Shown here in pieces: positions 3,272 through 39,234 of a DNA stretch of 64,000 bases. The notes below the pieces were generated by a model. The model did not search any database, was not told the origin of the DNA, and worked only from the letters and a program-made list of their open reading frames with translations. The translations under genes were made by a program, and so were the position numbers. Position 1 is the first letter of the stretch, and each line of letters opens with the position of its first letter. Source of the DNA: Torpedo marmorata (lineage: Eukaryota); the NCBI GenBank assembly GCA_977017645.1, contig OZ360219.1, positions 1,984,001 to 2,048,000 of the forward strand. The letters are read 5' to 3'.

Positions 3272-3734
3272 ACAAAAGGTTGGGGTAAGCGGGTCTTTTT
3301 CAGGATGGCAGTATGTGACGAGTGGAGTGCCGCAGGGATCGGTGTTGGGTCCTCAGTTGTTTGTCATTTATGTAAATGATTTGGATGAAGGGATTATTAA
3401 TAACTGAGCAAATTTGCAGATGACACTAAACTGGGTGGCGGTGTAAAGTGTGAGGAGGATGTCAGGAAAATGCAGAGGGACTTGGACAGGTTGGGGGAGT
3501 GGGCTGAAGAATGGAAGATGAAGTTTAATGTGAGCAAATGTGAGGTTATCCATTTTGGGGGCAGTAATAGGAAAGCTGAGTATTATTTAAATGGAGACAA
3601 GCTAGGGAGTGGGGAAGTGCAAATGGATCTGGGTGTACACTGAAGGCTAACATGCAGGTTCAGAAAGCTGTGAAGAAGGCAAATGGCATGTTGGCTTTCA
3701 TAAAGAGGGGATTGGAGTATAGGAGCAGAGACGC
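3272..3734 (+). mobile_element. CR1 LINE RT fragment, left half (interrupted by BEL element)
   Basis: [11 protein letters not shown] and KFADDTKLGG motifs; sequence resumes at 9640. Confidence 0.85.
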
Positions 3735-4339
3735 TATAAGTAACGGTGACTTCGCTCCACCAATAGTCACCTGGAGGCTAAGTGTGGTCCTTGTCTTTGA
3801 CGCGTTTTAATCAATTTACTAACAAAGTCCAATATGTTCAAAAACCTTTATTTTCACACATGATTTGCAGTAATCTTCAATGACTTTAATATAAACAGTT
3901 CTTGTAAACGATGTATGATAAGTTCCTTTAAATAATTCTTTAAACAATTCCAAAATGATATGAAAACACTGTAGAACGATGTAAAAGTTATAAAACGATA
4001 TAAAACGGTCAATAAAGATGTGGAGACCAGACTCACCCTCCATACATCTTTTCCTTTCTTTGTTCTCTCTCTCTCCAATGGCTCTGCGCATGCTCCAACG
4101 CGCATACTACAATTCCCAGCCTCCCACGCGCACAATGACGTCACTCTATACTGCGCATGCGCCCGTCGGCACTCCAGCGCATGCGCAGAGCACAAAACGG
4201 GCTGATAGCAGCCCGCAGACAATGCAAGCACTCCGAACGGGCCGAAGACGGCCCAGCAACAACTACGCGGCGCTCCAAGGTCCGACAAGACATCGGAGCG
4301 CCGCAACAACGGTAAGTAAACGAGCCTACGGCTCTTACA
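3735..4339 (-). repeat. 3' LTR of BEL element
   Basis: Direct repeat of 9035-9639; minus-strand ends TGTAAG...CTTATA. Confidence 0.95.
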
Positions 4340-4554
4340 CCGGCCCCTAATTATTATAATTAGACGTAATGTCTTGAATAATAATTACACTATAAATTAT
4401 AAATAACAATAACCATAATATTCAAAACAATACAAATCTTCTTTCTTCCTTCTTCATAAATCTAGAGTTTACCATAACTCTGATTCAACAAAAGTCTGTA
4501 ACCTGTGAAATATACAACAACAAATAAAGTCAGTTTATATTTATCAAAGTTCCT

Positions 4555-4730
4555 CTGTCTCCAACAAAAGACAGACCTGGTTAATAGGTCTGTTTAGAAA
4601 ACCAGTCTTAGCTTTAATTCGCACTTGACGCACAAGTCCTCTTTGCCTTGAAAAGTCTCAATAATCTTTTCCAAGTAACCAGGAATTTCTTGAAGTTGAA
4701 CCATCCATAACAATCACAATGTCTCTTTAA
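4555..4730 (-). pseudogene. Frameshifted relic of BEL integrase C-terminal (DUF5641-like) region
   Basis: Minus strand reads DIVIVMDGSTSRNSWLLGK / GLVRQVRIKAKTGFLNRPINQVCLLL, the typical BEL pol C-terminus. Confidence 0.75.
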
Positions 4731-4763
4731 AGTTCTTCCATCTTCACAATCCGAGTCAAAACG

Positions 4764-7700
4764 TCAACCAGTAAACCTCAAATCCTCCTCAGACAAAATA
4801 GATACAGTTTTTCTTTTGAATTTAACACAAGGCACTTCTTCAGCACGTCGTTTCACTTTATTCCTTTCTTCAGTGTTCCACTTCTCATGTGAAGAATTTA
4901 AACTCTTAGAATTAGAATTTGAATATTTATCTGATTCTTTCGATTTTAAACAGGTCTGTTTAACCACTCTGGTTTCTATTGCTCTTTCCTGCAATTCTAA
5001 ATCCAATTTCGCAACTTTCAATTCAGTCTCAGTTCTTTCCGAGAAATTAATAATTTGATCTGAAGTCAAAATATCATTTGATACATTGATATTTCCATTG
5101 TCAATCCTGTTGCGACAAACTTGAAATTTTTTAATTTCTTCATCTTGTTTGTTACATTTCTGCAATGCAATATCACATTCTTTCTGTATTGTTAATTGTT
5201 GAACATTCAATTTACATTCTTGATTGGTTTTTAAAGTCAACTGTTTTGTGTTATTAACCAATAACTTGTTCTCTTTCAAAACATTAATCTCTTCCTCCAA
5301 CCTTTTACATTTTGATAATGCTGAATCTCTTTCCTCAATAACTGTATTCATTTCTTCAGCAGTTATTCTTTTCTTCCGCTTTCTGACTTTGCGAGTTTTA
5401 CTTACAATTAAATCTTTCTGTTTACTGTTTTCTTGCTTATTTAATATTTCCAATTCTCCTTTCAACATTTTGTTCTCTGAATCATTATTCTTTATTCCAT
5501 CAGCACAATTTTCTGTGTTCTCCATTTTTACATCACATTGCAATAATTCTTCATTAGCTTTGTCAATTGTAATCTCTGAACTACAAAATCTACATTCAGA
5601 TTTGTTTTCAGTCACTTGTTTTATTCCTGTATTTGATTCAATTACACATGAATGATCAACAGTATTATTTGCAACATCTTCTAATACTTCACTTTCATCC
5701 ATTTCTGACGAAATTAATTTCTTCAATGTTGTTTTAAATACCACTGATTTATTTTTACATTGATCTGTTTTCTTTTCTTCATAAGTGATTTTCTTATTCA
5801 CGGTTTTTTGCTCTTCTCTTAACTCTTCAAATTTCTCAACTGAAATTTTATTAACATTTATCGCTACCTGTTCCTGAGCAATATCATTATTTCTTTCCAT
5901 TGGTCCATTGATTGCCCAACCAAGTATGGTTCTAATAGCGTAAGGTCCATTCCTTTTACTTTCTATTACTTCTTTTGGTACCAAAACCTTTGGCACATCT
6001 GAACCAATCAGCATTTCTATCTCAGAATTAATTTCAGGTAAATAAACCTTCCACAGATAAGCTAAATGATGTATATCACTTTGATGAGGAATATTTCCTT
6101 CGTTCACAGGCATAGTCTTCTGAGTATATACACTTGGAAGATCACAAAATTTTTTGTCATCCAATCCAGCAACCTCTAAGCCTGAAACAATGTTAGTTTC
6201 AACAACCTTTTCTTGTCCCATAGTTTTTAACATAATTCTTGATTTTCTTCCTTGAATATTAAGTTTATTCATTAGTCCTTCCGTGCAAAAAGATGCAGTG
6301 CTGCCTGGGTCTAGAAATGCATATGTTTTTACTATTGCATCTCCTTTCTTGGCTTTGACTTGTACAGGCACTATTGAAAGTTTGCAGTTATCCACACCGG
6401 CCCCAGTAAGACCACTTGTCTGAACCGAGGTTATAACATTATTTTCTGTTGTTTCCTTTGTTTCTGTTTGCTCCTTTTCCAATTCCTTGTTTCTGTTATG
6501 GATATGCAAAATTCTAGGATGTTTAAAATTGCATATGTCACAATTAATTTGCTTCTCGCAGTTTTTACTGATGTGCCCTTTACACAGACAGTTAAAACAT
6601 ATTCCATTTTCCTTTAAGAAAGCGATCTTTTCCTTATGTTCCTTCTTTTCCAATCGTAAACACATTTCTAAAGTATGTCCACCTTTACAGAACAAACAAC
6701 TCTTTTCATTAGGCAAACTTTTCTTTTCCTTATTTATTTTGTCCTTTTCTTTACTTATAACTTGCACATTAGTAGCAAAAGTACTCCTTTTCACTTTCGG
6801 ACTAGACTGTGAATTAGACTTCCTTACATCTTTGCTCATTGAATTATCTCTGGTATTTCCATATAGTGGATCTGTTTCAACATACACTTGTCGTTCAAGA
6901 AAATTTACCAAATCCTTTAAAGTAATTGTTCGACCATAATTTACTTGTAAATCACAAGCCAAATTTCTCCATCTATCCCATACCTTGTAAGGTAATTTTT
7001 CTAAAATGATTCGCATATTACTATGCACATCAAGCTCACGAATACCATCGATTTCTTCCATAGCATTACAACATCCTCTTAAAAACAAAGTATATTCTTG
7101 CAAAGCCTTTACATCATTTTGTTTTATTGATGTCCATTTAAGAGCTTTATCCATATAAGCTAAAGCAATTCGATGTTTGTTGCCAAAATATTGTTCCAAT
7201 AAATCCTTAGCTTTGTCTAATCCTCTTCCTGAAGACATTTGTTTACAACTTTTAACCAGTTCTTTTGGATGTCCCTTTGTGAACATTTCCAAATAATAAA
7301 GACATTCATCTCGATCTTGGCATTTATCTTCAATATTGCGTTTGAAAGATCTCATAAACGATTGATATTGAAGTGGATCACCATCAAAAGTTTGTATCTC
7401 TTTCTTGGGTAAAGAAGAGAGAGACTGTAACTGAAACAATGATGCAGCAATTTCATTTTGTCTTTCCTTGGATGACAATACATTGCTCTGTTCACTGTCT
7501 CGTGTTGTATGCAATGTATCTGGAAACCTTACTGGTGTAGTTTCTTCCATATTTCTGATGCTTGACTTATATAACAAAGAAGCTACTTCGTTCGACCGAA
7601 CCCAAGCCGCAGCTTTGCTTTCAGATGTTATTATTGGTACATGTGACTCGATACCAATATGCTCTTGAAAGGTTTGTCCTTGTATATGTAAGTTTTGTAT

Positions 7701-8588
7701 CCTTGGTTCTAAAATATCTATTCTTTTGGTTGGTTTCTTTTCCTGTGACTCCTTTTTTGAATATGACCTTTTATTATCAGATAATTTAGATAATTTACTG
7801 CTAGCACCAGATACCATTGAGCCTTCTATTGCTTTCTTTTCTGCCTTGGCAATAGCAATGTTTGCTTCCAGCTCCTGCTGTTCTTTTCTCTGCCTTAGCT
7901 GCTCCTTCTCTTGTCTTAGCTGCTCCTTTAGCTGCTCCTCCTTTTGTCTTAGCTGCTCCTTTAGCTGCTTCTCATTTTGTCTTAGCTGCTCCTCCTTTTG
8001 TCTTAGCTGCTCCTTTAGCTGCTCCTCCTCTTGTCTTAGCTGCTCCTTTAGCTGCTTCTCATTTTGTCTTAGCTGCTCCTCCTCTTGTTCTAATATAAAT
8101 TTATCCTTAAGCGTTTTTTGTTGTGCAAGAAGAGTGGCCAATTTAACATCAATCTTTGTACGTGACGACGCAGAACTTGAAGTACGAGAAACTCTGGAGC
8201 TCGAACCAGAACTTCTTTTGCTTCTCCTGCTTTCAGCATTTGAGACACTGTCACTTGCTTGTATTTCGTCCTGCAGTTCATATGTTGTCTTCATACTTAC
8301 CTCTTTATCCAATTCAAATTGTTCATCATTTGTTGATACAATTTCAGCCATTTCCAAGTTATCTTCTTGTTCCACTAATAAAGCTGCCTCTTCATCCTTT
8401 GCCTGCTTCAATCTTTCAATAAGAACCTTTTTATTTCCACTTATGTCCTTTTTCAGTCGCTTCAATTCTTCTTTAATATCCGCAACCTTCATGTCTTCAA
8501 TACGTTGGTCCTCAACAGCAACATCAGCGGTTGCTGCGTCAGCTGCTGATAAATCAGTAGCTGCTGTATCAGTGGCTGCTGCGGCCAT
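4764..8588 (-). CDS. Chimeric SAP - coiled coil - BEL Gag (3 Cys/His knuckles) - aspartic protease - MIPOL1-like coiled-coil polyprotein
   Basis: Uninterrupted ORF (track 4764-8630; good-context ATG at 8588, MAAAATD). SAP-like IEDMKVADIKEELKRLKKDISGNKKVLIERLKQA; Gag TFDGDPLQYQSF; knuckles CLFC..H..C, CFNC..GH..C, CDIC..H..LH; protease AFLDPGS; GPYAIRTILGW. Confidence 0.88.
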   Translation of the reverse strand: MAAAATDTAATDLSAADAATADVAVEDQRIEDMKVADIKEELKRLKKDISGNKKVLIERLKQAKDEEAALLVEQEDNLEMAEIVSTNDEQFELDKEVSMKTTYELQDEIQASDSVSNAESRRSKRSSGSSSRVSRTSSSASSRTKIDVKLATLLAQQKTLKDKFILEQEEEQLRQNEKQLKEQLRQEEEQLKEQLRQKEEQLRQNEKQLKEQLRQKEEQLKEQLRQEKEQLRQRKEQQELEANIAIAKAEKKAIEGSMVSGASSKLSKLSDNKRSYSKKESQEKKPTKRIDILEPRIQNLHIQGQTFQEHIGIESHVPIITSESKAAAWVRSNEVASLLYKSSIRNMEETTPVRFPDTLHTTRDSEQSNVLSSKERQNEIAASLFQLQSLSSLPKKEIQTFDGDPLQYQSFMRSFKRNIEDKCQDRDECLYYLEMFTKGHPKELVKSCKQMSSGRGLDKAKDLLEQYFGNKHRIALAYMDKALKWTSIKQNDVKALQEYTLFLRGCCNAMEEIDGIRELDVHSNMRIILEKLPYKVWDRWRNLACDLQVNYGRTITLKDLVNFLERQVYVETDPLYGNTRDNSMSKDVRKSNSQSSPKVKRSTFATNVQVISKEKDKINKEKKSLPNEKSCLFCKGGHTLEMCLRLEKKEHKEKIAFLKENGICFNCLCKGHISKNCEKQINCDICNFKHPRILHIHNRNKELEKEQTETKETTENNVITSVQTSGLTGAGVDNCKLSIVPVQVKAKKGDAIVKTYAFLDPGSTASFCTEGLMNKLNIQGRKSRIMLKTMGQEKVVETNIVSGLEVAGLDDKKFCDLPSVYTQKTMPVNEGNIPHQSDIHHLAYLWKVYLPEINSEIEMLIGSDVPKVLVPKEVIESKRNGPYAIRTILGWAINGPMERNNDIAQEQVAINVNKISVEKFEELREEQKTVNKKITYEEKKTDQCKNKSVVFKTTLKKLISSEMDESEVLEDVANNTVDHSCVIESNTGIKQVTENKSECRFCSSEITIDKANEELLQCDVKMENTENCADGIKNNDSENKMLKGELEILNKQENSKQKDLIVSKTRKVRKRKKRITAEEMNTVIEERDSALSKCKRLEEEINVLKENKLLVNNTKQLTLKTNQECKLNVQQLTIQKECDIALQKCNKQDEEIKKFQVCRNRIDNGNINVSNDILTSDQIINFSERTETELKVAKLDLELQERAIETRVVKQTCLKSKESDKYSNSNSKSLNSSHEKWNTEERNKVKRRAEEVPCVKFKRKTVSILSEEDLRFTG
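7870..8090 (-). repeat. In-frame tandem repeats encoding E/Q/K/L coiled coil (EEQLRQ/KEQLRQ)
   Basis: Repeated ttagctgctcc units. Confidence 0.85.
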
Positions 8589-9034: not shown

Positions 9035-9639
9035 TATAAGTAACGGTGACTTCGCTCCACCAATAGTCACCTGGAGGCTAAGTGTGGTCCTTGTCTTTGA
9101 CGCGTTTTAATCAATTTACTAACAAAGTCCAATATGTTCAAAAACCTTTATTTTCACACATGATTTGCAGTAATCTTCAATGACTTTAATATAAACAGTT
9201 CTTGTAAACGATGTATGATAAGTTCCTTTAAATAATTCTTTAAACAATTCCAAAATGATATGAAAACACTGTAGAACGATGTAAAAGTTATAAAACGATA
9301 TAAAACGGTCAATAAAGATGTGGAGACCAGACTCACCCTCCATACATCTTTTCCTTTCTTTGTTCTCTCTCTCTCCAATGGCTCTGCGCATGCTCCAACG
9401 CGCATACTACAATTGCCAGCCTCCCACGCGCACAATGACGTCACTCTATACTGCGCATGCGCCCGTCGGCACTCCAGCGCATGCGCAGAGCACAAAACGG
9501 GCTGATAGCAGCCCGCAGACAATGCAAGCGCTCCGAACGGGCCGAAGACGGCCCAGCAACAACTACGCGGCGCTCCAAGGTCCGACAAGACATCGGAGCG
9601 CCGCAACAACGGTAAGTAAACGAGCCTACGGCTCTTACA
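9035..9639 (-). repeat. 5' LTR of BEL element
   Basis: Direct repeat of 3735-4339; CpG-rich with NRF1-like and CRE motifs. Confidence 0.95.
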
Positions 9640-10238
9640 GACGCCCTTCTGCAGTTGTACTGGGCCCTGGTGAGACCTCACCTGGAGTATTGTGTCCAGT
9701 TCTGGTCTCCAAATTTGAGGAAGGACATACTAGCTATAGAGGGTGTGCAACGCAGATTTACAAGGTTAGTTCCAGGGATGGCAGGGTTGACATATGCTGA
9801 AAGGTTAGAAAAACTGGACTTATATCCGATGGAGTTTAGAAGGATGAGGGGGAACATGATTGAGGTATACAAGATTATCAAGGGGATAGACAGGGTGAAT
9901 TCGGATTACTTGTTCCCAATGATGGGAGAGACGAGGACTAGAGGGCATAGTTTAAGAATACAGGGAAGGTCCTTTAGGATGGAGATGAGGAAAAATATTT
10001 TTATCCAGAGAAGTGTGAATCTGTGGAATGCTCTACCACAGAGGGTGGTAGAGGCAGATTCGCTGATTATGTTCAAAAGAGAGTTAGATAAGACTCTAGT
10101 GGGCAGAGGAGTTAAGGGTTATGGGGATAAGGCTGGAAAGGGGTACTGATAGTAGTGATCAGCTATGATCTGTAAAATGGCGGTGCTGGCTCGACGGGCC
10201 GAAGGGCCTACTCCAGCTCCTATTGTCTATTGTCTATT
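9640..10238 (+). mobile_element. CR1 LINE right half with 3' tail
   Basis: ORF 9655-10149 (LVRPHLEYCVQFWSP..TRTRGH..NLWNALP); terminal (ctattgt)n repeat. Confidence 0.9.
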
Positions 10239-16777: not shown

Positions 16778-17054
16778 TGTGGTAAACCACTGTGCTTGTA
16801 TTGGTGGTACGTATAGGTACTGCGGGCCGGACTGATGCTACTCCCTCCCCTCCCTTGGGTGTCCAGGTAATCCCTCCCCTTTCCTCACCTGAATAAAGGC
16901 CACTGTATCTCGGCCATCCCCCTTCAGTCCGGACCTGATCGAGGAGGAAGCTCAGCTCCATTCTTAGCCAATAAAAGCCTATGATTCACTCGCTCTCACA
17001 GTCTTCGAGTTGTTATTGATAGGCCTATCAATTTTATTGGCTAAAGAACTTCTG

Positions 17055-17972
17055 ATGGAAGGAGCACTACGACCAGCTATCCTAGACCTCGACCACCTAG
17101 CCCCCGAGGCTGGTAACATCTTTGAACACTGGCTGGCCTGCCTCGAATCGTTCATGTTCACAGTGAAAGCCGAAAGTGAAGAGGAACAACTGAGAGTCCT
17201 TACCTCCAGGGTGAGCCATCGGGTGTACACGACGGTAAGAGAACACCGAACCTACACGGGAGCCATCGGGGCCCTGAAAGGAATCTACCTAGCGCCCGTC
17301 AACGCGGTCTACGCGCGATACCGGCTCTACTCACGGAGGCAGCGAACCGGGGAATCGACTGTGGAATATGTCAGGGCCATCCAGTCACTTGCACGGGCGT
17401 GCGACTGTAAAGCCCAGACTGCGGAGGAACACTTGCGAGTGGTGGAGCGAGATGCGTTCATCATGGGGCTCAGGTCGGTAGACGTGCGCCAGAGACTATT
17501 AGAGCACGCCGACCTGGACTTTGCGGGGGCGGTAGCGATGGTCAACACGCTGGAGACCGCGCAGCAGAACGCTGGTGCCATGCAGGCCCAGCCCGCAGCG
17601 TGGTCGGCCCCATCCCCTAGCCCGGTGAACGAACTGACCGCCGCCGCCGCCATCCGTGCCGACCCGATCGCGACCGCCGCCATCTGTGCCGACCCCATCG
17701 CGACCGCGATCCTCACCGCCGCTGCCGCCAGCCGCGAGCCCGAGAAGTGTTACTTCTGCGGGCTTGAAAAACACCCGCGGAAGCGCTGCCCGGCCCGCGA
17801 TGCGACTTGTTCCGGATGCGGCAGGAAAGGCCATTACATGAAGGCCTGCCGCTCCAAGTCGCGCCCGGGCCCGAGTAGCGCCGCGTGCGAGCTGCGGGGG
17901 CAGCCATCCTACCTGAATCTGCAGCAGCTTCCAGCGCCGACCTCGTGCGAGCCGCGGGGCGGCCATCTTTGA
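17055..17972 (+). CDS. gag: Gag with two zinc knuckles
   Basis: ATG at 17055; CYFCGLEKHPRKRC and CSGCGRKGHYMKAC. Confidence 0.88.
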   Translation: MEGALRPAILDLDHLAPEAGNIFEHWLACLESFMFTVKAESEEEQLRVLTSRVSHRVYTTVREHRTYTGAIGALKGIYLAPVNAVYARYRLYSRRQRTGESTVEYVRAIQSLARACDCKAQTAEEHLRVVERDAFIMGLRSVDVRQRLLEHADLDFAGAVAMVNTLETAQQNAGAMQAQPAAWSAPSPSPVNELTAAAAIRADPIATAAICADPIATAILTAAAASREPEKCYFCGLEKHPRKRCPARDATCSGCGRKGHYMKACRSKSRPGPSSAACELRGQPSYLNLQQLPAPTSCEPRGGHL

Positions 17973-20900
17973 CGCTGGCACTTCCGGAACCGGCCTCGTG
18001 TAAACCGCGGGGGCGGCCATCTTTGATGCTGGCACTTCCGGAACCGGCCTTGTGTGAGCCGCGGAGGCGGCCATCTTTGATGCTGGCACTTCCTGCACCT
18101 CCAGCATCTGTACTTCCAGCGATCCTACCGCCGCCATTTTACAGCAGCGACACGTGCGAGCCGCGGGGGCGGCCATCTTTGTCGGAGGTGGAAGAAGAAG
18201 AAGAAGAAGAAGACGATGCATACTTGTCGGCGGTGGAAGAAGAAGACGATGAATACATCGCAACTCTGGCGTCAGTCACCCTTGACCAGAGCATCCCTCA
18301 CCAGTTAGCAAGATCCATGATGGACATTCTGGTGGAGGGACACAAGACCACCTGTCTCTTCGATACGGGCAGTACGGAGAGCTTCATCCACCCGGACACT
18401 GTCCAGCGCTGTGGCCTCACGATTATACCGGTAAGCCAGAAGGTGGCCATGGCGTCTGGGGCACACACAACAGACATCCGGGGGGCTTGTGTGGCTGATA
18501 TTGTGGTACAGGGGACTAAGTACAAACATTTTTCCTTGTTAATAATGAATCGGTTATGTGCACCTGTATTGTTGGGGCTTGATTTTCAGAGTCACTTGCG
18601 CAGTGTCACGATGCGGTATGATGGTCCCCACCCTGCGATCACTGTAGTCAACCCCCAGTTCCTTAATAATGAGCCCCAGACTACCTGTGGCCTCTCCACT
18701 CTTAAGATCTCGCCTCCGTCGCTATTCGCCAACCTGACCCCGGACTGTAAGCCTGTTGCAACCATGAGCAGGCGATACAGTTCGGAGGACAGGGCGTTTA
18801 TCAGGGCGGAGGTTCAGAGGTTACTACAAGAGGGGATTATTGAAAAGAGCAATAGTCCCTGGAGGGCCCAGGTGGTCGTGGTAAAAGGGGCCAAGAGGAG
18901 GATGGTGGTGGACTACAGTCAGACGATTAACCGGTTCACCTTGTTGGACGCATACCCGCTACCAAGGATAGCGGACATGGTTAATCAGATCGCCCAGTAC
19001 AAGGTCTTTTCCACGATTGACCTGAAGTCCGCGTACCATCAGCTCCCGATCCGTCGGGAGGACCGCCAGTACACTGCGTTTGAGGCTGACGGGAAACTGT
19101 TCCACTTCCTGCGGGTCCCGTTCGGGGTTACTAACGGTGTTTCTGTGTTCCAGCGGGAGATGAATAACATTGTGGACGTGTATAAACTTAAAGCCACCTT
19201 CCCGTACCTGGACGATATCACCATCTGTGGGCTGGATCGCCAGGATCACGACACCAACCTCCGGAAGTTCCTGCAGGCGGCTAAAGCACTTAACCTAACA
19301 TATAATAAAGATAAATGTGTGTTCGGTACCACGCGCCTCGCTATTTTGGGGTACGTGGTAGAGAACGGGGTGATTGGACCAGACCCCGATCGCATGCGCC
19401 CCCTACTGGAACTTCCACTACCCTCCACCCCCAAAGCACTCAAGCGATGCCTCGGGTTCTTTTCATATTATGCACAGTGGGTACCGAATTATGCAGATAA
19501 GGCCCGACCCCTGGTGAAATCCACCGTATTCCCCCTTGGCTCGGAGGCACGTAAGGCCTTTGACCTTATAAAGGGGGACATTGCGCGAGCAACAATGCAC
19601 GCGGTGGACGAGGAGATACCTTTCCAGGTAGAGAGTGACGCATCGGACTTCGCGCTGGCTGCTACCCTCAACCAGGCGGGAAGGCCGGTGGCGTTTTTCT
19701 CGCGCACCCTTCAAGGCCCCGAAATTCGGCACTCCGCGGTGGAGAAAGAAGCCCAGGCCATCGTGGAAGCAATCAGGCACTGGAGGCACTATCTCGCCGG
19801 CAAGCATTTTACCCTGCTGACCGACCAACGCTCGGTAGCATTTATGTTCAGCAACCAGCAGCGGGGTAAGATCAAAAACGATAAGATCATGAGGTGGAGA
19901 ATAGAACTCTCCACCTACAACTACGACATCCTCTACCGGCCCGGGAAGCTCAATGAGCCCTCAGACGCTCTATCCCGGGGATCGTGCGCCAGCGCGCAGA
20001 TCGACCGATTAACTGCCCTACATGACCTCCTCTGTCACCCAGGAGTTACCAGGCTTTTTCACTTCGTGAAGGCACAGAACCTGCCATACTCCCTGGAAGA
20101 GGTCAGGGCTTTGACCAGAGACTGTCGTGTTTGCGCAGAGTGCAAACCTCAGTTCTACCGCCCGGACAGGGCACAGCTGATCAAAGCCACACGCCCCTTT
20201 GAACGTCTTAGTATTGACTTCAAGGGGCCCCTCCCCTCCACAAACCGCAACGTGTACTTCCTAAACATTGTTGACGAGTACTCGCGGTTCCCTTTTGCCA
20301 TCCCCTGCCCCGACACCTCAGTTACCTCAACCATAAAAGCTCTCCACCAGGTATTCACGCTGTTTGGGTTCCCAAACTACATACATAGCGACCGGGGAGC
20401 AGCTTTTATGAGTGAGGAGCTGCGCCGGTACCTGCAGGACCGAGGCATCGCCACTAGCAGGACAACAGCATACAACCCCCGAGGAAACGGTCAGGTGGAA
20501 AGGGAGAACGCCACGGTGTGGAAGGCCGCGCTCCTAGCCCTTAAGTCAAAGGGCTGGCCGGTCTCCCGCTGGCAGGATGTTCTCCCCGAAGCCCTCCACT
20601 CTATCCGGTCCCTTTTGTGCACTTCCACCAACGCAACTCCTCATGAACGATTTCTTTCTTTCCCTAGGAAATCGACCACCGGGACCTCCCTTCCTGCCTG
20701 GCTGATGTCCCCGGGACCAGTGCTGCTCCGGAACCACCTTCGGAGCAGCAAATATGAACCGACGGTTCAGAGGGTGCAGTTGGCGCACGCCAACCCCCAG
20801 TATGCGTACGTGGTCTTCCCGGATGGACGAGAAGACACCGTCTCCATCAGAGACCTGGCGCCTGATGGGGCGCCAGTTGGGCATTCCGACGGGCAAGTCC

Positions 20901-21127
20901 ACGTACCACAGAACACGCAGCAACCTCTTCCTAACGCCCCACCCGATGTGCTAGACCCCGCCCCCTCAACGGCATCGCAGTTGTCCCGAGAGGCCAGGCA
21001 GGAGGCGACGGCACAGACGACCCTACCACCTCCCCCGTCACTCATATCTTCCCCAGCACCACAGCCCGACCCGCCATTACGCAGGTCACAGCGAAAAATT
21101 CGGCCGCCGGATCGCCTCGATCTGTGA
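17885..21127 (+). CDS. pol: Pol polyprotein (protease, RT, RNase H, integrase)
   Basis: LFDTGS; YLDD; VESDASD; H..HPG..C..C; IDFKGP / HSDRG / GQVEREN (DDE). Confidence 0.93.
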   Translation: MRAAGAAILPESAAASSADLVRAAGRPSLTLALPEPASCKPRGRPSLMLALPEPALCEPRRRPSLMLALPAPPASVLPAILPPPFYSSDTCEPRGRPSLSEVEEEEEEEDDAYLSAVEEEDDEYIATLASVTLDQSIPHQLARSMMDILVEGHKTTCLFDTGSTESFIHPDTVQRCGLTIIPVSQKVAMASGAHTTDIRGACVADIVVQGTKYKHFSLLIMNRLCAPVLLGLDFQSHLRSVTMRYDGPHPAITVVNPQFLNNEPQTTCGLSTLKISPPSLFANLTPDCKPVATMSRRYSSEDRAFIRAEVQRLLQEGIIEKSNSPWRAQVVVVKGAKRRMVVDYSQTINRFTLLDAYPLPRIADMVNQIAQYKVFSTIDLKSAYHQLPIRREDRQYTAFEADGKLFHFLRVPFGVTNGVSVFQREMNNIVDVYKLKATFPYLDDITICGLDRQDHDTNLRKFLQAAKALNLTYNKDKCVFGTTRLAILGYVVENGVIGPDPDRMRPLLELPLPSTPKALKRCLGFFSYYAQWVPNYADKARPLVKSTVFPLGSEARKAFDLIKGDIARATMHAVDEEIPFQVESDASDFALAATLNQAGRPVAFFSRTLQGPEIRHSAVEKEAQAIVEAIRHWRHYLAGKHFTLLTDQRSVAFMFSNQQRGKIKNDKIMRWRIELSTYNYDILYRPGKLNEPSDALSRGSCASAQIDRLTALHDLLCHPGVTRLFHFVKAQNLPYSLEEVRALTRDCRVCAECKPQFYRPDRAQLIKATRPFERLSIDFKGPLPSTNRNVYFLNIVDEYSRFPFAIPCPDTSVTSTIKALHQVFTLFGFPNYIHSDRGAAFMSEELRRYLQDRGIATSRTTAYNPRGNGQVERENATVWKAALLALKSKGWPVSRWQDVLPEALHSIRSLLCTSTNATPHERFLSFPRKSTTGTSLPAWLMSPGPVLLRNHLRSSKYEPTVQRVQLAHANPQYAYVVFPDGREDTVSIRDLAPDGAPVGHSDGQVHVPQNTQQPLPNAPPDVLDPAPSTASQLSREARQEATAQTTLPPPPSLISSPAPQPDPPLRRSQRKIRPPDRLDL
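17943..18185 (+). repeat. 54-bp in-frame tandem repeat in Gag-PR linker
   Basis: Unit encodes SC(E/K)PRGRPSLMLALPEPA; the first unit is 53 bp. Confidence 0.85.
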
Positions 21128-21475
21128 GAGGAGGGTCTGTATGTATATATGTATATATTTTTTTTGTGTACATGGAGTGGTCACGTCACCCCGCTGGACT
21201 CTTTTTAAAAAGGAGGGGTGAATGTGGTAAACCACTGTGCTTGTATTGGTGGTACGTATAGGTACTGCGGGCCGGACTGATGCTACTCCCTCCCCTCCCT
21301 TGGGTGTCCAGGTAATCCCTCCCCTTTCCTCACCTGAATAAAGGCCACTGTATCTCGGCCATCCCCCTTCAGTCCGGACCTGATCGAGGAGGAAGCTCAG
21401 CTCCATTCTTAGCCAATAAAAGCCTATGATTCACTCGCTCTCACAGTCTTCGAGTTGTTATTGATAGGCCTATCA

Positions 21476-22080
21476 AGGGGGATCTCATTGAAACCTCTTG
21501 AATATTGAAAGCGCTGGAAACAGTGAAAGTGCAGAGGATGTTTCCAGTAGTCGGAGAGTCTAGGACCAGAGGGCACAGCCTTAGAATAAAAGAATGTCCC
21601 TTTGGAACAGCGATTCTCAACGGGGGCCACAGAACATTTCAGGGGAGGGCACAGACTGAAATCATAAAATATTTTAATGTTTTTTATGTAGTCGATAGGA
21701 GAAAAGTACAGAAGAAACCAACCAATTGACTGCTTGACAGGAAAGGGGGCCATTAAACTTTGAACAGAATCCTAAGGGGGCCTTAGCCAAAAAAAAAAGG
21801 ATTGAGATTGGGTGCTTTGGAATAGAGATTAGGAGAAAGTTCTTCAGCCAGAGGATGGTGAATTTGTGGAATTCGTTCCTACAGACATCTATGGTGGCCA
21901 GGTCATTGGATAGATTTAAAGCGGTGATTGATAGATTTGTGATTAGTATGGGTGTCAAAGGTTGTGGGGAGAAGGCAGGAAAATAGGGTTGAAAGGAAGA
22001 ACATATCACCCATGATTCAAATGGCAAAGCAGATTCAGGGGGCTGAACGGCCCAATTCTGCTTCTATTCTCATGTTATGT
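21476..22080 (+). mobile_element. CR1 right half with 3' end (contains hAT MITE)
   Basis: RMFPVVGESRTRGHSL motif; CR1 3' UTR. Confidence 0.8.
21608..21814. mobile_element. hAT (Charlie-like) MITE, ~207 bp
   Basis: 8-bp TSD CTTTGGAA; left TIR CAGCGATTCTCAAC (right TIR degenerate); homologous to 58500-58705. Confidence 0.75.
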
Positions 22081-26615: not shown

Positions 26616-26659
26616 TTAAAGCCCTGGAATACCTGGACAGTAAAGATGCATACATCAGG

Positions 26660-29600
26660 TGTTGTAATGTGAGCTGTTTTGAAAGTGAGGCTGGTTCCGG
26701 AGTAAGGGAGGGGTTTTACTTCCTGTTTTTATTTACTTCTGGTGTGCCTTGTATATTGCTTAGAGACCATGCCGTGTGGTCCAGAGGGAAAAAACAGAGG
26801 AAGAAAATAAGCCTCTGTATATGTATGGTTTTGCTGTTCCAGATAAAGTTGTTCTTTTGAGCTTGAAGTTGTTGAGTGGTCCTTTTTCAAAGTAGAAGTT
26901 ACCACATTTTTGGCGACGAGGTGAACTGGTTTTGTGGAAGTGTCGACCTGTTTTTTAATCGGAGCTGTGCGTTTGGATGGCTACGTTCGGGATTATCGGT
27001 GAATTTGTGGAAGGAAATGAGGATTGGTTGGAGTATGAGGAAAGGTTGGGACAATTTTTCTGTGATAATGGAATTACGAAGGAGGCTAAGAAGCGCTCTA
27101 TTCTCCTGAGTGTGTGTGGGGCACAGACTTACAAGTTGATAAGGAACTTAGCCACACCGTGGAAACCGGGGGAAATTCTATTTGACTAACTGGTCAAGCT
27201 TGTGGTGAACTACCACAATCCGAACCCTTCTGTGATAGGCCAACGGTTTAAGTTTCACAGCCTTTTCAGGAAGCCAGGTCAGTCTGTGGCCAATTTTGTG
27301 GCCGAGCTTCGGCAGCTATCGGAGCATTGTGATTTCGAGGCAGTATTGGATGATATACTCCATGATAGATTGGAATGTGGCATTAATAATGACGCCATAC
27401 AACGCCGCATGTTGGGGGAAACCCCATCGCTGACTTTCAAGAAAGCCCTAGAGATTGCCCAAGGCATGGAGATGGCTGCTAATAATGCCAAGGATATCCA
27501 GAAAGGACATGGGGGGTCGCAGTCAGCGGCAGTGTACCAAGTCAGGAGGGAGACTGGTATACAGGCAAAGCGGGTGGAATGTTTTCGGTGTGGAGGGACG
27601 CACTATGCAAATGATTGCAAATTCAAAGACACTGTCTGCTATGGTTGTGGCAAAAAGGGACATTTAGCTAAGAAGTGCAGGAGTTCAAAGGGTAAGGTTA
27701 AGTCTGGGCAGGGGAAAGCTCAACGGGCTCCGGCAGCCACACACTACCTAGAAGAAACAGATGAAGAGACAGCGTGTACTTACAATATGTTTGGAGTGGA
27801 AACAGATGAGGAACCACCTGAACCATATTCTGCCACAATCACTGTCAGGGGAAAGGATATTAAGTTTGAGGTTGATTCAGGGGCCACAGCATCGGTCATC
27901 AGTGAGGAGACCTACAGGAGGACATGGGGGTCCAACCTGCCTCCCATCAGACCGTCAAAGCTCAAACTCAGGACCTATACGGGGCAGCCCATAGGGGTGT
28001 TATATGTGAATATTTTAGCTGGGGGTCAGAAGGCGGAAGCCAGGCTGGTGATAGCTCAGGGTAGCGGGCCCAGTCTTTTGGGCCACGATTGGCTTCGCAA
28101 AATCCGGCTCAACTGGCATGAAATTAAGTATGCACACAGGGCGGAGGACATTCTGCAGCGCTACAGTGACGTTTTCAGGGATGAGCTGGGCACACTGAAG
28201 GGCGTGACAGTGAAACTCAATGTTGACCCTGAGGCCACACCATGTTTTTTTAAGCCCAGGGTGGTGCCCTACACCATGAAAGACAAGGTCGAGGAGGAGC
28301 TGAAACCTTTACAGCGGTTCGGCATCATTGAGTCCGTCTAGTTTTCAAGGTGGGCCGCTCCCGTTGTTCCAGTTTTGAAGGCAGACAAAATGGTGAGGAT
28401 ATGTGGGGACTATAAGCTTGCGGTGAATCAGGTCTCTAAGCTGGAGGAGTACCCATTGCCATGGGTGGGTGACCTGTTTGCGACCCTGTCAGGGGGTAAG
28501 CTATTCACAAAGCTGGACATGAGCCACGCTTACCAACAGCTGCTGCTCGACGAGGATTCTAAGGAGTACGTCACAATTAACACACATAAGGGATTATTTA
28601 AATACAATCGCCTGGTGTTTGGAGTGGCGTCCAGCCTCGCCATTTTCCAAAGGACAATGGACACCTTGCTGCAGGGGATTCCGCACGAAGTGGTGTATCT
28701 GGATGATATTTTGATCACGGGGGCCACGGAGGTGGAGTATCTGGCTAACTTGGAACAGGTGTTGAAGAGGCTCTCAGATGCAGGGCTGCGATTGAAACGC
28801 AGCAACTGTGTGTTCCTGGCACCGAGTGTGACCTACCTGGGACACAAGATCACAGCTGAGGGGCTCTGCCCAGTGGAGGACAAAGTGAGAGCTATCAAGG
28901 AGGCCCCAAGCCCAAAGAGCGTCACGGAACTTAGATCATTTTTGGGCATGGTGAATTATTATGGCAAGTTTCTTCCTGACCTCTCAAGGGTTTTGGCCCC
29001 ACTGTACAAGCTGTTTCACAATAACACCAAGTGGCAGTGGAGTGAAGAGCAGGAGGAAGCTTTCAAGGACGCGAAAGAACTCCTCCACTCAGCGAAGCTG
29101 CTGGTTCACTATGACCCAGATAAGGAGATCACCCTTTCATGTGACACCTCGTCCTATGGAGTAGGGGCAGTTCTCTCACATGTAATGGAGGACCGTTCAG
29201 AGAAGCCTATTGGTTTTGCTTCACGTACCCTGACGGCTGCTAAATGGGATATTCACAGCTAGACAAAGAAGGTCTGGCCATTGTTTTTGCGCTCAAACAT
29301 TTTCATCAGTACCTCTATGGAAGTGCATTCACAATTTATACAGATCATAAACCACTGATGAGCCTGTTCAGTGAGACCAGATGTGTCCCACCGCTAGCCT
29401 CAGCTAGGATACAGCGTTGGGCTCTCAAATTGTCAGCTTACCAGTACACTATTGTGTATAGAGGAGGTGGGATAATGCAAATGCCGATGCGCTGAGTCGT
29501 CTACCTTTACCTGAGACACCGGATACTACATATGTGCCTCCAGAGACGGTGTTTTCATTGGAGAGGCTGTCAGACACACCTGTAAAGGTGACTCAGATAA

Positions 29601-31364
29601 AGCAGTGGACAGAGAGGGACCCAGTCCTGTCTCAAGTCAAGACTTTCCTTTTACAAGGATGGCCCAGTATCGTGGAAGGAGAGGAACTGAAGCCTTATGC
29701 CAAACGTAAGACAGAATTGAGTCTGCAGGATGACTGCATTTTGTTGGGGGCGAGGGTCATCGTGCCTCCCCCTGGCCATTCAAAGATTGTGGAGGAAGTT
29801 TATGAGACTCATCCAGGGGTGTCTCGAATGAAAAGCCTTGCAAGATCCTACGTCTGGTGGCCAACAATGGATCAGGATCTGGAGAACAAGGTAAAATCAT
29901 GCACACAACATCAGATCAATCAGAAAATGCCACCAGCAGCTCCTTTGCACCCATGGGAGTGGCCAGACCACCCCTGGTCTAGGCTACATTTGGACTTTGC
30001 TGGCCCTTTTATGGGGCAGATGTTTGTAGTAATGGTGGATGCGCATTCCAAATGGATAGAAGCTCACATCATGGGCAACATTACAGCCCACTCAACCATA
30101 GACAAACTCAGGCAAGTGTTTGCAGTCCAGGGGTTGCCTGACACTCTGGTCACTGATAATGGCCCGACGTTTACCAGTGAGCTGTTCAGTGAGTTCATGC
30201 AGCAGAATGGCATTCATCACATTCGGACGGCCCCTTTCCACCCAGCCTCAAATGATTTGGCTGAGCGGGCTGTTCAGACAGTGAAGGAAGGCCTGAAGAG
30301 GATGACAGGGGACTCTCTTAGCATCAGGCTTTCACGTTTCTTGTTTAAATACCGCCTTACGCCGCAGACTACAACTGCACGCACTCCAGCGGAGATGCTG
30401 ATAGGGCGTAGGCCCAAGTCAAGATTGGACCTGCTGTGCCTGGACATGAAGGCCAGAGTGGAGAGGAAGCAGGAAAAGCAGATGGAGGGACATGATCAAC
30501 ATGAGCGAGAAAGACAGTTAAAACCAGATGACAATGTCTATGTGAGAAACAATCAGTAATGGCTACCCGGGGTTATTCTTAAGCAGAGTGGGCCTGTCTC
30601 CTATGTTGTTAAGCTGACTGACGGACATGTTTTCCGCAGACAACAGGACCGTGTGTGCTTGCGTCATGATACATACGCAGAGGCAGACAGTTCCATGGAG
30701 TTTCCAATGGTGAAACAGACTACTGTGGAAGTGTGTTCCTCAGTGACTTTGCCAGAGGGAGAGACGCTGGCAGAGGGGTCTGGGTCCCCTGAGGAGGATG
30801 GACATTCCCACACGGACACACAGACCCTTCTTATGTCCCCAGCACCAGATCCGCCCAAAACACCTTCGTCAGCGGTGCCAGCTGCGTCATCGGGGGTAGT
30901 GCGCAGATCACAGCACACTCGCAAACCTCCTGATAGACTGAATCTTTGATTGGACAGTTTTTTAGTGGACTGAATGTGGAATCTGCCACGTTTTTCAGAT
31001 GTTTTAGTATTGTTAAATTGTTGCTGAGACGTTATTATAAGTTTTAGGAGAACGCAAGCTAATGACACCATTGTTCTTTTATACTTGGGGCATGTTGGAT
31101 TTTAAAGGGGGAGAAGTGTTGTAATGTGAGGTGTTTTGAAAGTGAGGCTGGTTCCGGAGTAAGGGGGTGATTTTACTTCCTGTTTTCTTTTACTTCCGGT
31201 GTGCCTTGTATATAGCTTCGAGACCATGCCGTGTGATCCAGAGGCAAAAAAACAGAGGAAGAAAATAAGCCTCTGTATATGTATGGTTTTGCTGTTCCAG
31301 ATAAAGTTGTTCTTTCGAGCTTGAAGTTGTCAAGTGGTCCTTGTTCAAAGTAGACGTTACTACA
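26660..31364 (+). mobile_element. Older Ty3/Gypsy LTR retrotransposon (K02A2.6/Mag-like) with tRNA-Ser PBS
   Basis: Diverged LTRs 26660-26906 and 31117-31364; TSD TCAGG; PBS TGGCGACGAGG (26911-26921) complementary to the tRNA-Ser(GCU) 3' end; PPT AAAGGGGGAGAAG. Confidence 0.92.
26977..30949 (+). pseudogene. pol: Disrupted gag-pol
   Basis: Pieces with CCHC knuckles, VDSGA, YLDD, LSCDTS, HPG and LVTDNG..AER, separated by stops and frameshifts. Confidence 0.88.
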
Positions 31365-32551
31365 TCAGGATGCTCGTTATCAATTGCAGTTCAGCATTTA
31401 ACACCAACATCCCCTCAAAACTGATCAGCAAATTCCAAGACCTGGGAGTTAACACCCCACTGTGTAATTGGATCCTGGATTTCCTCACCTCCAGACCACA
31501 ATCAGCGAAGATTGGTAAGAACTTCTCATCCACAATTTCCATCAGTACCAGAGCACCACAGGGCCGCGTTCTTAGCCCCCTGATCTACTCACTTTTCACC
31601 TATGACTGTGCAGCTCGGTATGACAACACCACCATCTACAAATTCACTGATGATACCATGGTAGTGGGTTGTATAAAATGGGGCGATGAGTCATCATACA
31701 GGAGGGAGATTGAAAACTTGGCTGAATTGTGCACCAACAACAACCTTGCACTCAATGTCACCAAAACCAAGGAGCTGATTGTTGACTTCAGGAAAGGAAA
31801 ACCAGAGGTATACAATCCAGTGATCATTGGGGGAATCAGAGGTGGAGAGGGTGAGCAAATTTAAGTTCTTGGGAGTCACTATCTCGGAGGATCTTTCCTG
31901 GATCCAATGCACTAATGGCATCGTGAAGAAAGCACGTCAATGCCTCAACTTCCTCAGGAGTTTGCGGAGGTTTGGTATGACATCAGAAACCCTGGCAAAT
32001 TTCTACAGATGTGTGGTGGAAAGTGTGTTGACCAGCTGCATCACGGTCTGGTATGGGGACACCAATGCCCCTGAGAGAAAAGCCCTGCAAAAGGTAGTGG
32101 ACACAGCCCAGGACATCATGGGTAAAATGCACCCCACCATCAAGAACATCTATGGGGAACGCTGCCATCGGAGAGCAGCAGCAATCATCAAGGATCCACA
32201 CCACCCAGCACACGCTCTGATCTCACTGCTACCATCAAGAAAGAGGTATAGGTGCCACAAGACTCGCACCACCAGGTTCAGGAACAGCTGCTACCCCTCC
32301 ACCATCAGACCCCTCAACGACAAACTCAATCAGGGACTCATTTAAGGACTCTTACTTTTGCACTTTATTATTTTTTTCCCTCTCTGCATTGCACACTCAG
32401 TTTGTTTACATTTCTTTATTTGTTTACATGTGTACAATGTGTACTTTTTTTTTTGCACGACAAATAATTGGTAATTCTGCCTCGCCCGCACGAAACAGAA
32501 TCTCAGGGTTGTATGTGATGTCATGTATGTACTCTGACAATAAATCTGAAT
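31365..32551 (+). mobile_element. Rex1/Babar-type LINE (left stub at 26618-26659), target of the Gypsy insertion
   Basis: ORFs 31334-31864 and 31827-32345; tail tgacaataaatctgaa. Confidence 0.88.
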
Positions 32552-37300: not shown

Positions 37301-38765
37301 CAGTCGGGGCATGACCAATAGCGTGAAGTCCCGGTATTTAGTGTCCTGGACCACTAGCGTCGCTACACAACCCCCCCGGATGTCTGTTGTGTGCAACCCT
37401 CTTGCTTACCGGCTGTGTCTTGAGGCAGCATCGCTGTACTGTGTCAGGGTGGATGAAGCTCTCTGTGTTGCCCGTGTCGAACGGGCAGTTTTTTCTGTGT
37501 CCCTCGACCAGGATGTCCATCATCGACCTCGCGAGTTGATGGGGTGCACTCTGATCGAGTGTAACTGACGCCAACGTTGAGTCGCTGTCTTGATCCGACG
37601 CAATGGAGTGCCTGCTGTCCCGCGATGGCGGCACCCTGTGTCGGCGTGATGGCATGTAACAAAATGGCCGCTCCCATGCCTCGCACGTGTTGGCCGCGGG
37701 TAAGTAAGATGACGGCGATGGAAGTGATGACACACAAGATGGCCGCCCCCAAACCTCGCACGCGGCGCTGCTCGATCCCGCACGTGGTTTAGATCTACAG
37801 ACCTTAGCGAAATAGCCTTTCATCCCGCAGCTGGAGCAGGTCGCTTCTCGGGCCGGGCAACATTTCCGGGGGTGCTTTTCAAGTCCGCAGAAGTAGCATT
37901 TCTCGGACTCGCGGATGACGGCTGCTGTGGTCAATTCACCGGCATGGTGTGGGGTCTACGGTATCCACGGAGTCTGCGGGAGATCGCGCACCGGTATAGC
38001 ATCAGAGTTTTGTAGCGCGGCCTCCGGTGTATCGGCCAGATCGATCGCGGAACGGAAGGTGAGGTCAGCTTGTTCCAGCAGCCGCTGGCGCACATACACT
38101 GACCTGGTCCCCGTAACAAAAACGTCTCTTACTAGGAGCTCTGCATGTTGTTCGGCCGTCAGTCCCTGGCAGTCGCAGGCCCGCACGAGTGTTTGTAGGG
38201 CCTGTACGAACTCCACGCTCGACTCCCCGGGCCACTGCTGCCGCGTCGCTAGCCAGTGTCACGCATACACAGTATTAACAGGCCGTATATACTGCCTTTT
38301 AAGGGCATTCATAGCGTCTTCATAAGTCTGAAGATCTCGGATCATGGAGTAGACTCGTGGGCTTACCCTAGAGAGGAGAACCTTGCATTTTGCAGTGTCT
38401 TCCTGTACTTTGATCTCCTCCAGGAACGACTCAAAACAGGCTAGACAGAGTTCGAAAGCATTGCCAGCCTCTGGTGTTTGTGGATCGAGGTCCAGTTTTT
38501 CTGGTCTCAAGACATGCTCCATGCTTACAATTTTGCCAATAAAATTAACTTCAAAAGACTAGAAGTTACACAAGAACTGAAAGGCTTTTATTGGCAAAAG
38601 AATGGAGCTACATTCGTGCTGGTGATCTGTCCCGGACTGGGGGAGGAGTGGTGGCACAATCGCCTTTATTCAGGGGGTCTGTGGGAGGAGCCACCGGGAC
38701 AGTCAGCAGAGGGCATGTCCAGACATATCACCCAGCCCACAACCCATACATAGTGATTTACCACA
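34330..38765 (-). mobile_element. Degenerate Ty3/Gypsy element related to 16778-21475
   Basis: LTRs 34330-34564 and 38546-38765; TSD ATTAC; same PPT; fragmented gag/pol ORFs highly similar to the young copy (YLDN instead of YLDD). Confidence 0.92.
36948..37030 (-). mobile_element. ~83-bp L1-type 3' tail inserted into Gypsy pol
   Basis: 9-bp TSD CTCTGACTT; AATAAAATATT/A-rich end like the other L1s here. Confidence 0.7.
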
Positions 38766-39234
38766 ATTACCAATCCCTGAGGGTAGAAGTTTGGAGCAGT
38801 GAACAGAATTAGCTGAGGTAAGTTATAACACAGCAAAGGATTGATCGATTTGGACATTAAGAGGACAGTTCACAAAGAAATGGTTATCATATTTTAATGG
38901 GAAAAAAGTGGGGAGAAGGGGGGAGGTAAGAGGTTGCCTGTCATTTAGAGCAAGGTACAAGAATGTGAAAATGAATGGGAGAGGGAAATGGATTAAAGAT
39001 AACTGAAGTGGTGGTGAACATCAACGAAAATATGGGAACTAGGTATGAAATCTATCAGCGAACCAAGTCACTTAGTTATTCAAGATTCAAGGTTCATTTT
39101 ATTATATATAAAATACACAAAATTTGTTAACTTTTGCTTGCCATGAAGGCACACGAAGTGGCACCACTCGCCCGGCACCCCTGCCAATAAGAGAAAGAGA
39201 AGCAAAAGGGAGTCTCTTCAGAAACATCAGGTGT

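Follow-up and report, generated by a model that had tools for sequence, protein, structure and literature searches.

A multiplied, non-autonomous BEL/Pao element with an in-frame cassette of BRCA1, MIPOL1 and Elongin A exons in place of pol, including an apparent back-splice junction

The window analysed here, a stretch of 64,000 nucleotides (G000:C1:1984001-2048000) within a 6.22-Gb assembly, contains a minus-strand LTR element of 5905 bp (~5.9 kb) that is a non-autonomous derivative of BEL/Pao and not an autonomous member of this group. In place of ~3.2 kb of pol, it carries an in-frame cassette of 1.1 kb made up of three intronless host pieces, derived from BRCA1, MIPOL1 and Elongin A, and the MIPOL1 exons are joined out of order at exact host splice sites, which is, judged from the genomic sequence, the signature of a back-spliced circular RNA. 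We assign a probability of roughly 60% to the reading that a non-autonomous BEL/Pao element exchanged its pol for BRCA1, back-spliced MIPOL1 and Elongin A, likely by template switching, and that the cassette likely serves as an open-frame stuffer. The original prediction made on this DNA overlooked the most informative features, namely the back-splice junction and the pieces derived from BRCA1 and Elongin A.

Results

Architecture of the element

The two LTRs of the element differ at 2 of 605 positions, are flanked by the 5-bp target site duplication (TSD) GACGC and enclose a single ORF (Table 1), in agreement with the original prediction of a young BEL/Pao element with near-identical LTRs and a stop-free reading frame. 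The insertion interrupts a LINE RT remnant, which we take to be CR1-like. The LTRs terminate in TG...TA and not TG...CA, both in the window and in the helpers described below as well as in most of the close copies; a few of the sampled copies end in CA. A BEL-type Gag (DUF1759) and a protease are present in one ORF, and the protease of the older copy L077 gave a DUF1758 match below the cut-off. Within gag, positions 7858-8097 consist of variable repeat units of 33, 21 and 12 bp encoding an EEQL(R/K)Q coiled coil. Comparison with an intact helper of 2018 aa limited the matches to helper residues 1-189, 213-895 and 1960-2010, the last of which is untranslated in the window, and neither this comparison nor a domain search found any RT, RNase H or integrase core left in the window element. 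The predicted loss of the pol core, with survival of an integrase tail only, was hence confirmed, and the helper comparison together with the young LTR pairs likewise upheld the claim of a non-autonomous, recently mobile element that keeps Gag and protease.

Table 1. Coordinates of the features of the window element (positions in the window)
Feature	Position	Strand	Remarks
5' LTR, 605 bp	9035..9639	-	begins TGTA, ends TATA rather than CA
3' LTR	3735..4339	-	
TSD GACGC	3730..3734	+	second copy at 9640-9644
Single ORF, 1274 aa (8588->4767)	4764..8588	-	Gag, protease, RT start and BRCA1/MIPOL1/Elongin A cassette; stop at 4766-4764
SAP domain, Gag N-terminus	8400..8501	-	also present in the helper
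BEL/Pao Gag core	6966..7388	-	PF03564 DUF1759, E 1.4e-6
Aspartic protease region	5898..6386	-	DPGS motif; under purifying selection
Start of RT region, last helper-like stretch	5808..5897	-	helper homology stops at 5808
BRCA1-derived piece	5416..5807	-	two spliced exons, 79-83% to host
MIPOL1 exons E (part), F and G, spliced	5110..5415	-	end is the host splice donor
Apparent back-splice junction	5109..5110	-	exon G donor and upstream NAGNAG acceptor of exon A; eroded in the window, exact in 249 older copies
MIPOL1 exons A and B, which precede E-G in the host	4966..5109	-	81-nt in-frame deletion
Elongin A-derived piece	4735..4965	-	contains the ORF stop; PF06881 part of older copies missing
Integrase C-terminus remnant, untranslated	4571..4723	-	helper aa 1960-2010, DUF5641 region
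Polypurine-tract region	4340..4364	-	same sequence as in the helper

Other repeats were observed in the window. Two related LTR elements of 4.4-4.7 kb, at 16778-21476 (+) and 34345-38776 (-), are 78% alike and presumably Gypsy-like, as named from their ORFs; the former has 100% identical LTR seeds and a pol ORF of 1082 aa. A further Gypsy-like LTR element at 26659-31365 (+) has LTRs that are 92-95% alike and a pol broken by stops, and a 27-bp tandem repeat array of ~20 units, with three frames open, is located at 53700-54330.

The MIPOL1 piece and the out-of-order join

The last 381 aa of the ORF gave 189 protein matches at E<=0.001 (3252 candidates), the best being MIPOL1 from sawfish (E 2e-29) and Narcine (E 4e-29); among the 120 matches listed, nearly all named proteins were MIPOL1 and all carried the same two Pfam accessions. 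These matches suggest that the host is a ray-like cartilaginous fish. The MIPOL1 identity proposed for the tail therefore extends far beyond generic coiled-coil similarity, but its borders needed to be redrawn: of the span 5110..5565 originally assigned to MIPOL1, positions 5110-5415 are MIPOL1 and positions 5416-5565 are derived from BRCA1. Further MIPOL1 sequence, from exons located upstream in the host gene, occupies 5109-4966 and is followed by the Elongin A piece.

The MIPOL1 residues do not follow the order of the host protein. In a BLASTP alignment with Narcine MIPOL1, the match to residues 295-375 lies after the match to residues ~440-550, and dozens of less eroded genomic copies read residues 437-553 and then directly 295-385 (68 of 57,441 candidates scored). 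The matches of the element all fall within aa ~290-565 of P0004, corresponding to the circle exons, with edges due to alignment overrun. The host MIPOL1 gene is located on G000:C40, where 270 kb were read and each exon was found once. Host exon G ends with TACTACAG/gtaag (slashes denote splice positions), and exon A, 206 kb upstream of the exon G donor, begins at a NAGNAG acceptor, taatag/cag/GGCTGAA. The join in the element uses the upstream AG of this acceptor and reads TACTACAG-CAGGGCTG; in the window it is eroded yet in place at 5110/5109, and older copies read TACTACAG-CAGGGCTGAA. Both the donor context TACTACAG/gt and the acceptor context taatag/CAG/GGCTG, the latter even with one mismatch allowed, have a single match in 6.2 Gb, and the joined back-splice 19-mer has 249 exact matches in the genome (reversed control 0). 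An acceptor pattern built on a guessed pyrimidine tract had no genomic match, because the real intron end differs.

Older copies are 93-97% identical to MIPOL1 exons E, F, G, A and B and devoid of introns, and six MIPOL1 exons are joined at host splice sites in such copies. Together with the spliced BRCA1 and Elongin A exons described below, this supports the captured host cDNA of the original prediction. Since the host introns at both ends of the join are phase 2, the back-splice join keeps the reading frame. Only circle exons (A-C and E-G) were found among the scored matches and the older copies read, which represent a sample of the copies. A non-colinear exon junction at a back-splice site is described as the defining mark of circRNA-derived sequence (PMC4897178), and exonic circles from the MIPOL1 gene have been catalogued in both mouse and human (PMC9888537, PMC8783515), a correspondence at the level of the gene. 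The term 'circMIPOL1' was absent from the literature searched.

We considered whether the join could have come from a linear RNA, either by trans-splicing or from a tandem duplication of exons A-G that was later lost, or from a chance template jump, instead of from a circle. As Dong et al. point out, a non-colinear join may also have other origins (PMC4897178), and only ~600 of the ~780 nt of the circle were captured, so that no rolling-circle repeat is seen; the parent circle is deduced from DNA. However, donor and acceptor splice sites are both hit exactly by the join, which employs the upstream AG of the NAGNAG acceptor, unlike what a template jump would leave, and the donor and acceptor being single-copy in the assembly, with each exon present once in the region read, also argues against a non-circular origin, which we regard as improbable. 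A back-spliced circle thus continues to be the preferred source of the MIPOL1 piece.

Tandem MIPOL1 pieces at G000:C42:9563886-9564965 were considered as a rolling-circle product and rejected, as their period is 405 nt and not that of the ~780-nt circle; this period and the 100% identity of the units indicate a recent local duplication. Three copies of the cassette family were observed inside host MIPOL1 introns (G000:C40:64487500-64487814, 64408215-64408529 and ~64495020-64495400; L055-L057 and L065).

The BRCA1 and Elongin A pieces

The segment preceding MIPOL1 in the older copy L074 matched skate BRCA1 with E 4e-55 (HMMER; 5 matches among 1.84 billion proteins), and the corresponding segment of the window itself aligns to BRCA1 at E 1e-27. 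Host BRCA1 is a single-copy gene on G000:C61, four exons of which are joined at splice sites in older copies with 87-100% identity to the host. A word-index search using the segment before MIPOL1 yielded nothing among proteins of 326-1040 aa, and host BRCA1 was not among the loci recovered with the BRCT family. Downstream of MIPOL1, older copies contain PF06881 of Elongin A in the form of five spliced exons that are 92-97% identical to the host gene on G000:C41. A second Elongin A-like gene with introns was observed at G000:C25:175318134-175337565; it was rejected as the donor, given an identity of 69-78% as compared to 92-97% for the gene on C41.

The natural copy L076 carries the three host pieces within a single frame of 594 aa, every piece being read as in its gene of origin, and in copy L069 the RT start runs into BRCA1 in frame. 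The microhomology at the switch point between BRCA1 and MIPOL1 is 2 nt, as read in the copies and helpers sampled. In most older copies a 19-nt spacer lies between MIPOL1 and Elongin A (L069:6190-6210); it matched neither the three host regions nor the fetched helpers and may originate from a fourth RNA.

Copy number, age and helper

A 20-mer of the cassette has 17,177 exact matches in the genome, host exon included, compared to 22,889 for a protease 20-mer and 932 for an RT 20-mer of the helper family (reversed control 0 in each case). The cassette copies thereby outnumber the helper ~18 to 1, and the possibility of a single-copy segment, raised along with the original prediction, is dismissed. 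Twenty protease matches were chosen for having no adjacent cassette 20-mer, leaving out one helper row; the cassette was still present in 16 of these, the other 4 had no cassette, tail or pol within 3.7 kb, and in none of the 20 was the protease joined straight to the tail. The cassette hence appears to be near-universal in the family, and since 16/20 of the chosen matches carry it, the true number of cassette copies is probably near 20,000. If most copies are full length, the family is estimated to occupy ~100-125 Mb, or ~2% of the assembly.

Of the 30 nearest copies to the window, 27 had measurable LTR pairs, which were 98.2-100% identical (ten at 100%), and 21 had a complete ORF with the same end as that of the window, the ORF length across these close copies being 1242-1348 aa. 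Distinct TSDs among the copies demonstrate secondary retroposition of the chimera. A less biased sample was taken from the first 53 rows of the cassette-match list, omitting the window itself together with a near neighbour, a copy of the old type and five units in tandem; three segmental duplicates were later dropped from the resulting 45 copies, and the final 42 are 84-97% identical to the window, with a complete ORF in 8 of them.

The LTRs of the window and of copies L100-L129 differ by 4-19% between copies with 98-99% identical cassettes, and the two LTRs of each of the latter copies are mostly 99-100% alike; LTR turnover between copies seems to be very fast. A tandem array with five cassette matches at an exact spacing of 4964 bp was observed at G000:C1:1498298-1518173, and L072 (G000:C59:41763000-41772999) is a young copy inserted in an older copy of the same family.

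To survey the helper, 15 PF05380 loci were fetched out of 150 scored, and intact ORFs of 2018-2134 aa, with LTR pairs of 97-100%, were found in 5 of them. The intact helpers have the same LTR start and polypurine tract as the window element and a gag-PR that is 91-94% identical (89-94% for the helpers in general), and helper L138 encodes RNase H (PF05380), RT and integrase (rve, DUF5641) after the protease. In the protease tree helpers and cassette copies interleave, and dS relative to older copies is 0.64-0.73 for gag-PR compared to 0.25-0.30 for the cassette, suggesting that cassette copies have repeatedly exchanged their backbone with the helper. For four public runs, which represent four organisms and studies, contigs covered 30/30 (X2), 29/30 (X6), 27/30 (X4) and 25/30 (X8) bins along the element, indicating that relatives carry it too.

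Selection on the reading frame

Based on host-to-window substitution rates, 10.1 stops would be expected over the 331 codons of the cassette and none is present (P 1.8e-5). All eight deletions identified by comparison with five older copies, each of which has private frameshifts, keep the frame (24, 24, 120, 81, 195, 3, 3 and 111 nt). On a tree of 40 copies, 20 stops were placed on terminal branches versus 1 on an internal branch (p 0.012), and shared indels were 3 in-frame and 0 out-of-frame in the cassette as compared to 0 and 11 after the stop, although the latter include probable recurrent homopolymer slips. The reading frame of the cassette is under selection. The cassette has at the same time been reduced from ~2.0 to 1.1 kb, diverged to ~80% identity to the host exons, and increased in A content from 36.6% to 44.0%. 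A recurrent premature stop, ~120 codons before the end and located at a T/A run, was seen in 4-5 of the 42 sampled copies.

The open frame could be secondary if the cassette were kept for reasons at the RNA or host level, such as packaging length, A-rich RNA, or camouflage, where small RNAs directed against the cassette would also strike BRCA1 or Elongin A mRNA. The cassette has been retained at a lower dS than gag-PR, and helpers interleave with cassette copies, both of which would fit this idea; furthermore, LTR-borne retrocopies of the diamondback moth are reported to give rise to small RNAs that silence their parent gene (PMC9674220). On the other hand, the shrinkage and the drift away from the host exons speak against a held length or camouflage, neither of which accounts for eight out of eight deletions being in frame, and we find this explanation very unlikely.

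Selection on the residues

ML estimates of omega between the host exons and the window cassette were 1.00 overall and 0.70, 1.41 and 0.56 for the BRCA1, MIPOL1 and Elongin A pieces, respectively, none of which differs from 1. MIPOL1 residues conserved in amniotes were kept at 31 of 44 positions, similar to variable residues (35 of 51; p 1.0). For gag-PR, omega was 0.35 against older copies, 0.40 against helper L139, and 0.99 against the close helper L138, where changes are few. Using shared variants and correcting for the mutation spectrum, omega was 0.51 for gag, 0.38 for protease and a non-significant 0.76 for the cassette (p 0.14; 0.83 without CpG sites). Amino-acid constraint on the captured parts was consequently not detected by the host-exon omega or at the conserved sites, although weaker signals to the contrary exist: the uncorrected relative omega of shared versus singleton variants in the cassette was 0.44 (p 0.0016), the uncorrected tree-based omega 0.57 (p 0.002), mostly due to MIPOL1, and NG86 omega against older copies 0.46-0.75. 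The raw difference between singleton and shared variants was rejected as a sign of purifying selection, since this deficit arises largely because shared variants have a higher transition share (0.73 vs 0.53), and it is not significant after correction. The residues of the cassette are at most weakly selected. The segment, for which dN/dS had been proposed as a check, is accordingly selected in its frame, whereas its residues show omega ~1 relative to the host exons, and the latter, including the value for the MIPOL1 part and the conserved residues not being spared, lends no support to the adaptor or decoy role suggested for the MIPOL1 coiled coil.

A different protein role of the chimeric tail would nevertheless be consistent with the conserved frame; for instance, dimerisation through the MIPOL1 coiled coil, in place of RT, could activate the protease, or its basic stretches could serve as an NLS, and the tail would thereby help the element to outnumber its helper. 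The MIPOL1 part has a mild, mostly non-significant amino-acid deficit (omega 0.63-0.73, p 0.08-0.29), ~100 aa of its coiled coil outlasted all deletions whereas the Elongin A PF06881 part was lost, and the cassette is near-universal, being carried even by most of the chosen protease matches without the exact 20-mer. By analogy, HIV-1 protease is activated more strongly when it is followed by a leucine zipper (PMC3291649). The omega values against the host exons and the unspared conserved residues of MIPOL1 point in the opposite direction, and no annotated fusion protein of 700-2230 aa was found with the cassette region as query, making a protein role unlikely in our opinion. The homodimer fold prediction for the MIPOL1 part, with a score of 0.20 compared to a mark of 0.32, was given no weight for or against. 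A fuller version of the protein role, in which the element made a protein module de novo from BRCA1, circular MIPOL1 and Elongin A and uses it as protease activator or nuclear-import tail, seems slightly more doubtful still; if true, a protein module would allow a parasite of a parasite to outnumber its helper ~18 to 1 and to reach ~2% of a 6-Gb genome. As the frame is selected and the residues are at most weakly so, an open-frame stuffer, and not an adaptor or decoy, is the most likely interpretation of the cassette.

Discussion

The probable route of capture follows the template-switch model of Tan et al. (PMC5131818): in one round or more, reverse transcriptase would have switched from the element RNA onto co-packaged mRNAs of Elongin A and BRCA1 and onto a MIPOL1 circle. 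The resulting element would make Gag and protease and would likely be moved by RT and integrase borrowed from the helper. Translation would proceed across the cassette and terminate at a distance of ~430 nt, and not 1.5 kb, from the 3' LTR, and the unspliced element RNA would thereby escape the nonsense-mediated decay (NMD) that acts on long 3'UTRs, while the cassette would continue to shrink through in-frame deletions and to drift towards A-rich sequence. Survival of the RNA by avoiding NMD would then be the most likely reason for the open frame, by analogy with unspliced retroviral RNA, which is destabilised by premature stops via Upf1, as observed for such stops in the gag gene of RSV (PMC2925335).

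These findings suggest that circular RNAs can be captured by retrotransposons and multiplied on a huge scale. The presence of a back-spliced junction and a helper in one LTR system offers a concrete route for circRNA retrotransposition, through co-packaging and template switching. Thousands of datable copies moreover provide a natural experiment that sets frame selection against protein selection and in which the NMD idea can be tested without engineering, and in these fishes the decayed BRCA1, MIPOL1 and Elongin A sequence carried by the family has to be taken into account in annotation and read mapping and may give rise to small-RNA cross-talk.

Acutely transforming, replication-defective retroviruses encode gag-onc fusions, depend on a helper, and have host cDNA replacing pol in frame with gag. 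The present element resembles them in its probable helper dependence and in the in-frame replacement of pol by host cDNA. Unlike in these viruses, where the host protein is functional and selected, the residues captured here evolve at omega ~1, and there is no env.

In the literature searched, the scope of which excluded subscription papers, supplements, Repbase and Dfam, we found no description of this element or of circRNA capture by LTR elements. The known kinds with which we compared it, namely maize Bs1, LTR-mediated retrocopies and circRNA pseudogenes, are described with 1-40 copies, and the multi-gene capture reported here is amplified three to four orders of magnitude beyond these published cases. 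Maize Bs1 (Jin and Bennetzen, 1994; Elrouby and Bureau, 2001, 2010; as presented in PMC5131818 and PMC13317346) is likewise an LTR element with secondary retroposition, and its internal region combines spliced sequence from three host genes, unlinked to one another, into a single chimeric ORF. In contrast to Bs1, which is a plant element described with 1-5 copies per genome (PMC5131818), the element studied here is present in a vertebrate in at least 17,000 copies and combines a BEL/Pao backbone with an intact young helper and measured selection on the frame only; it also contains a back-splice, of which the accounts of Bs1 in PMC5131818 and PMC13317346 make no mention.

The LTR-mediated retrocopies of Tan et al. 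(2016, PMC5131818) are similar in that partial mRNAs replace part of the ORFs with both LTRs kept, and they include multi-gene chimeras, such as a four-gene case in mouse, as well as non-autonomous re-transposition. The cases described there are single or low-copy, unlike the present one, and typically have microsimilarity with a median of 6 bp, for which the copies sampled here show 2 nt at BRCA1/MIPOL1 and the 19-nt spacer at MIPOL1/Elongin A. The words 'circular' and 'circRNA' do not occur in the main text of that paper (PMC5131818). The circRNA-derived pseudogenes of Dong et al. (2016, PMC4897178) share with our element a non-colinear junction at the back-splice site; the 33 high-confidence copies of mouse circRFWD2 are enriched for flanking LTRs, and the authors leave the mechanism of retrocopying 'mysterious' (PMC4897178). 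Unlike the copies described in that paper, the circle-derived piece reported here lies in frame, flanked on either side by mRNA-derived sequence, within a complete LTR-gag-PR-LTR unit that has an identified helper and several hundred times more copies. In conclusion, this element is unusual for the circRNA junction that its complete LTR unit encloses, for its cargo of BRCA1 sequence and for the scale of its multiplication.
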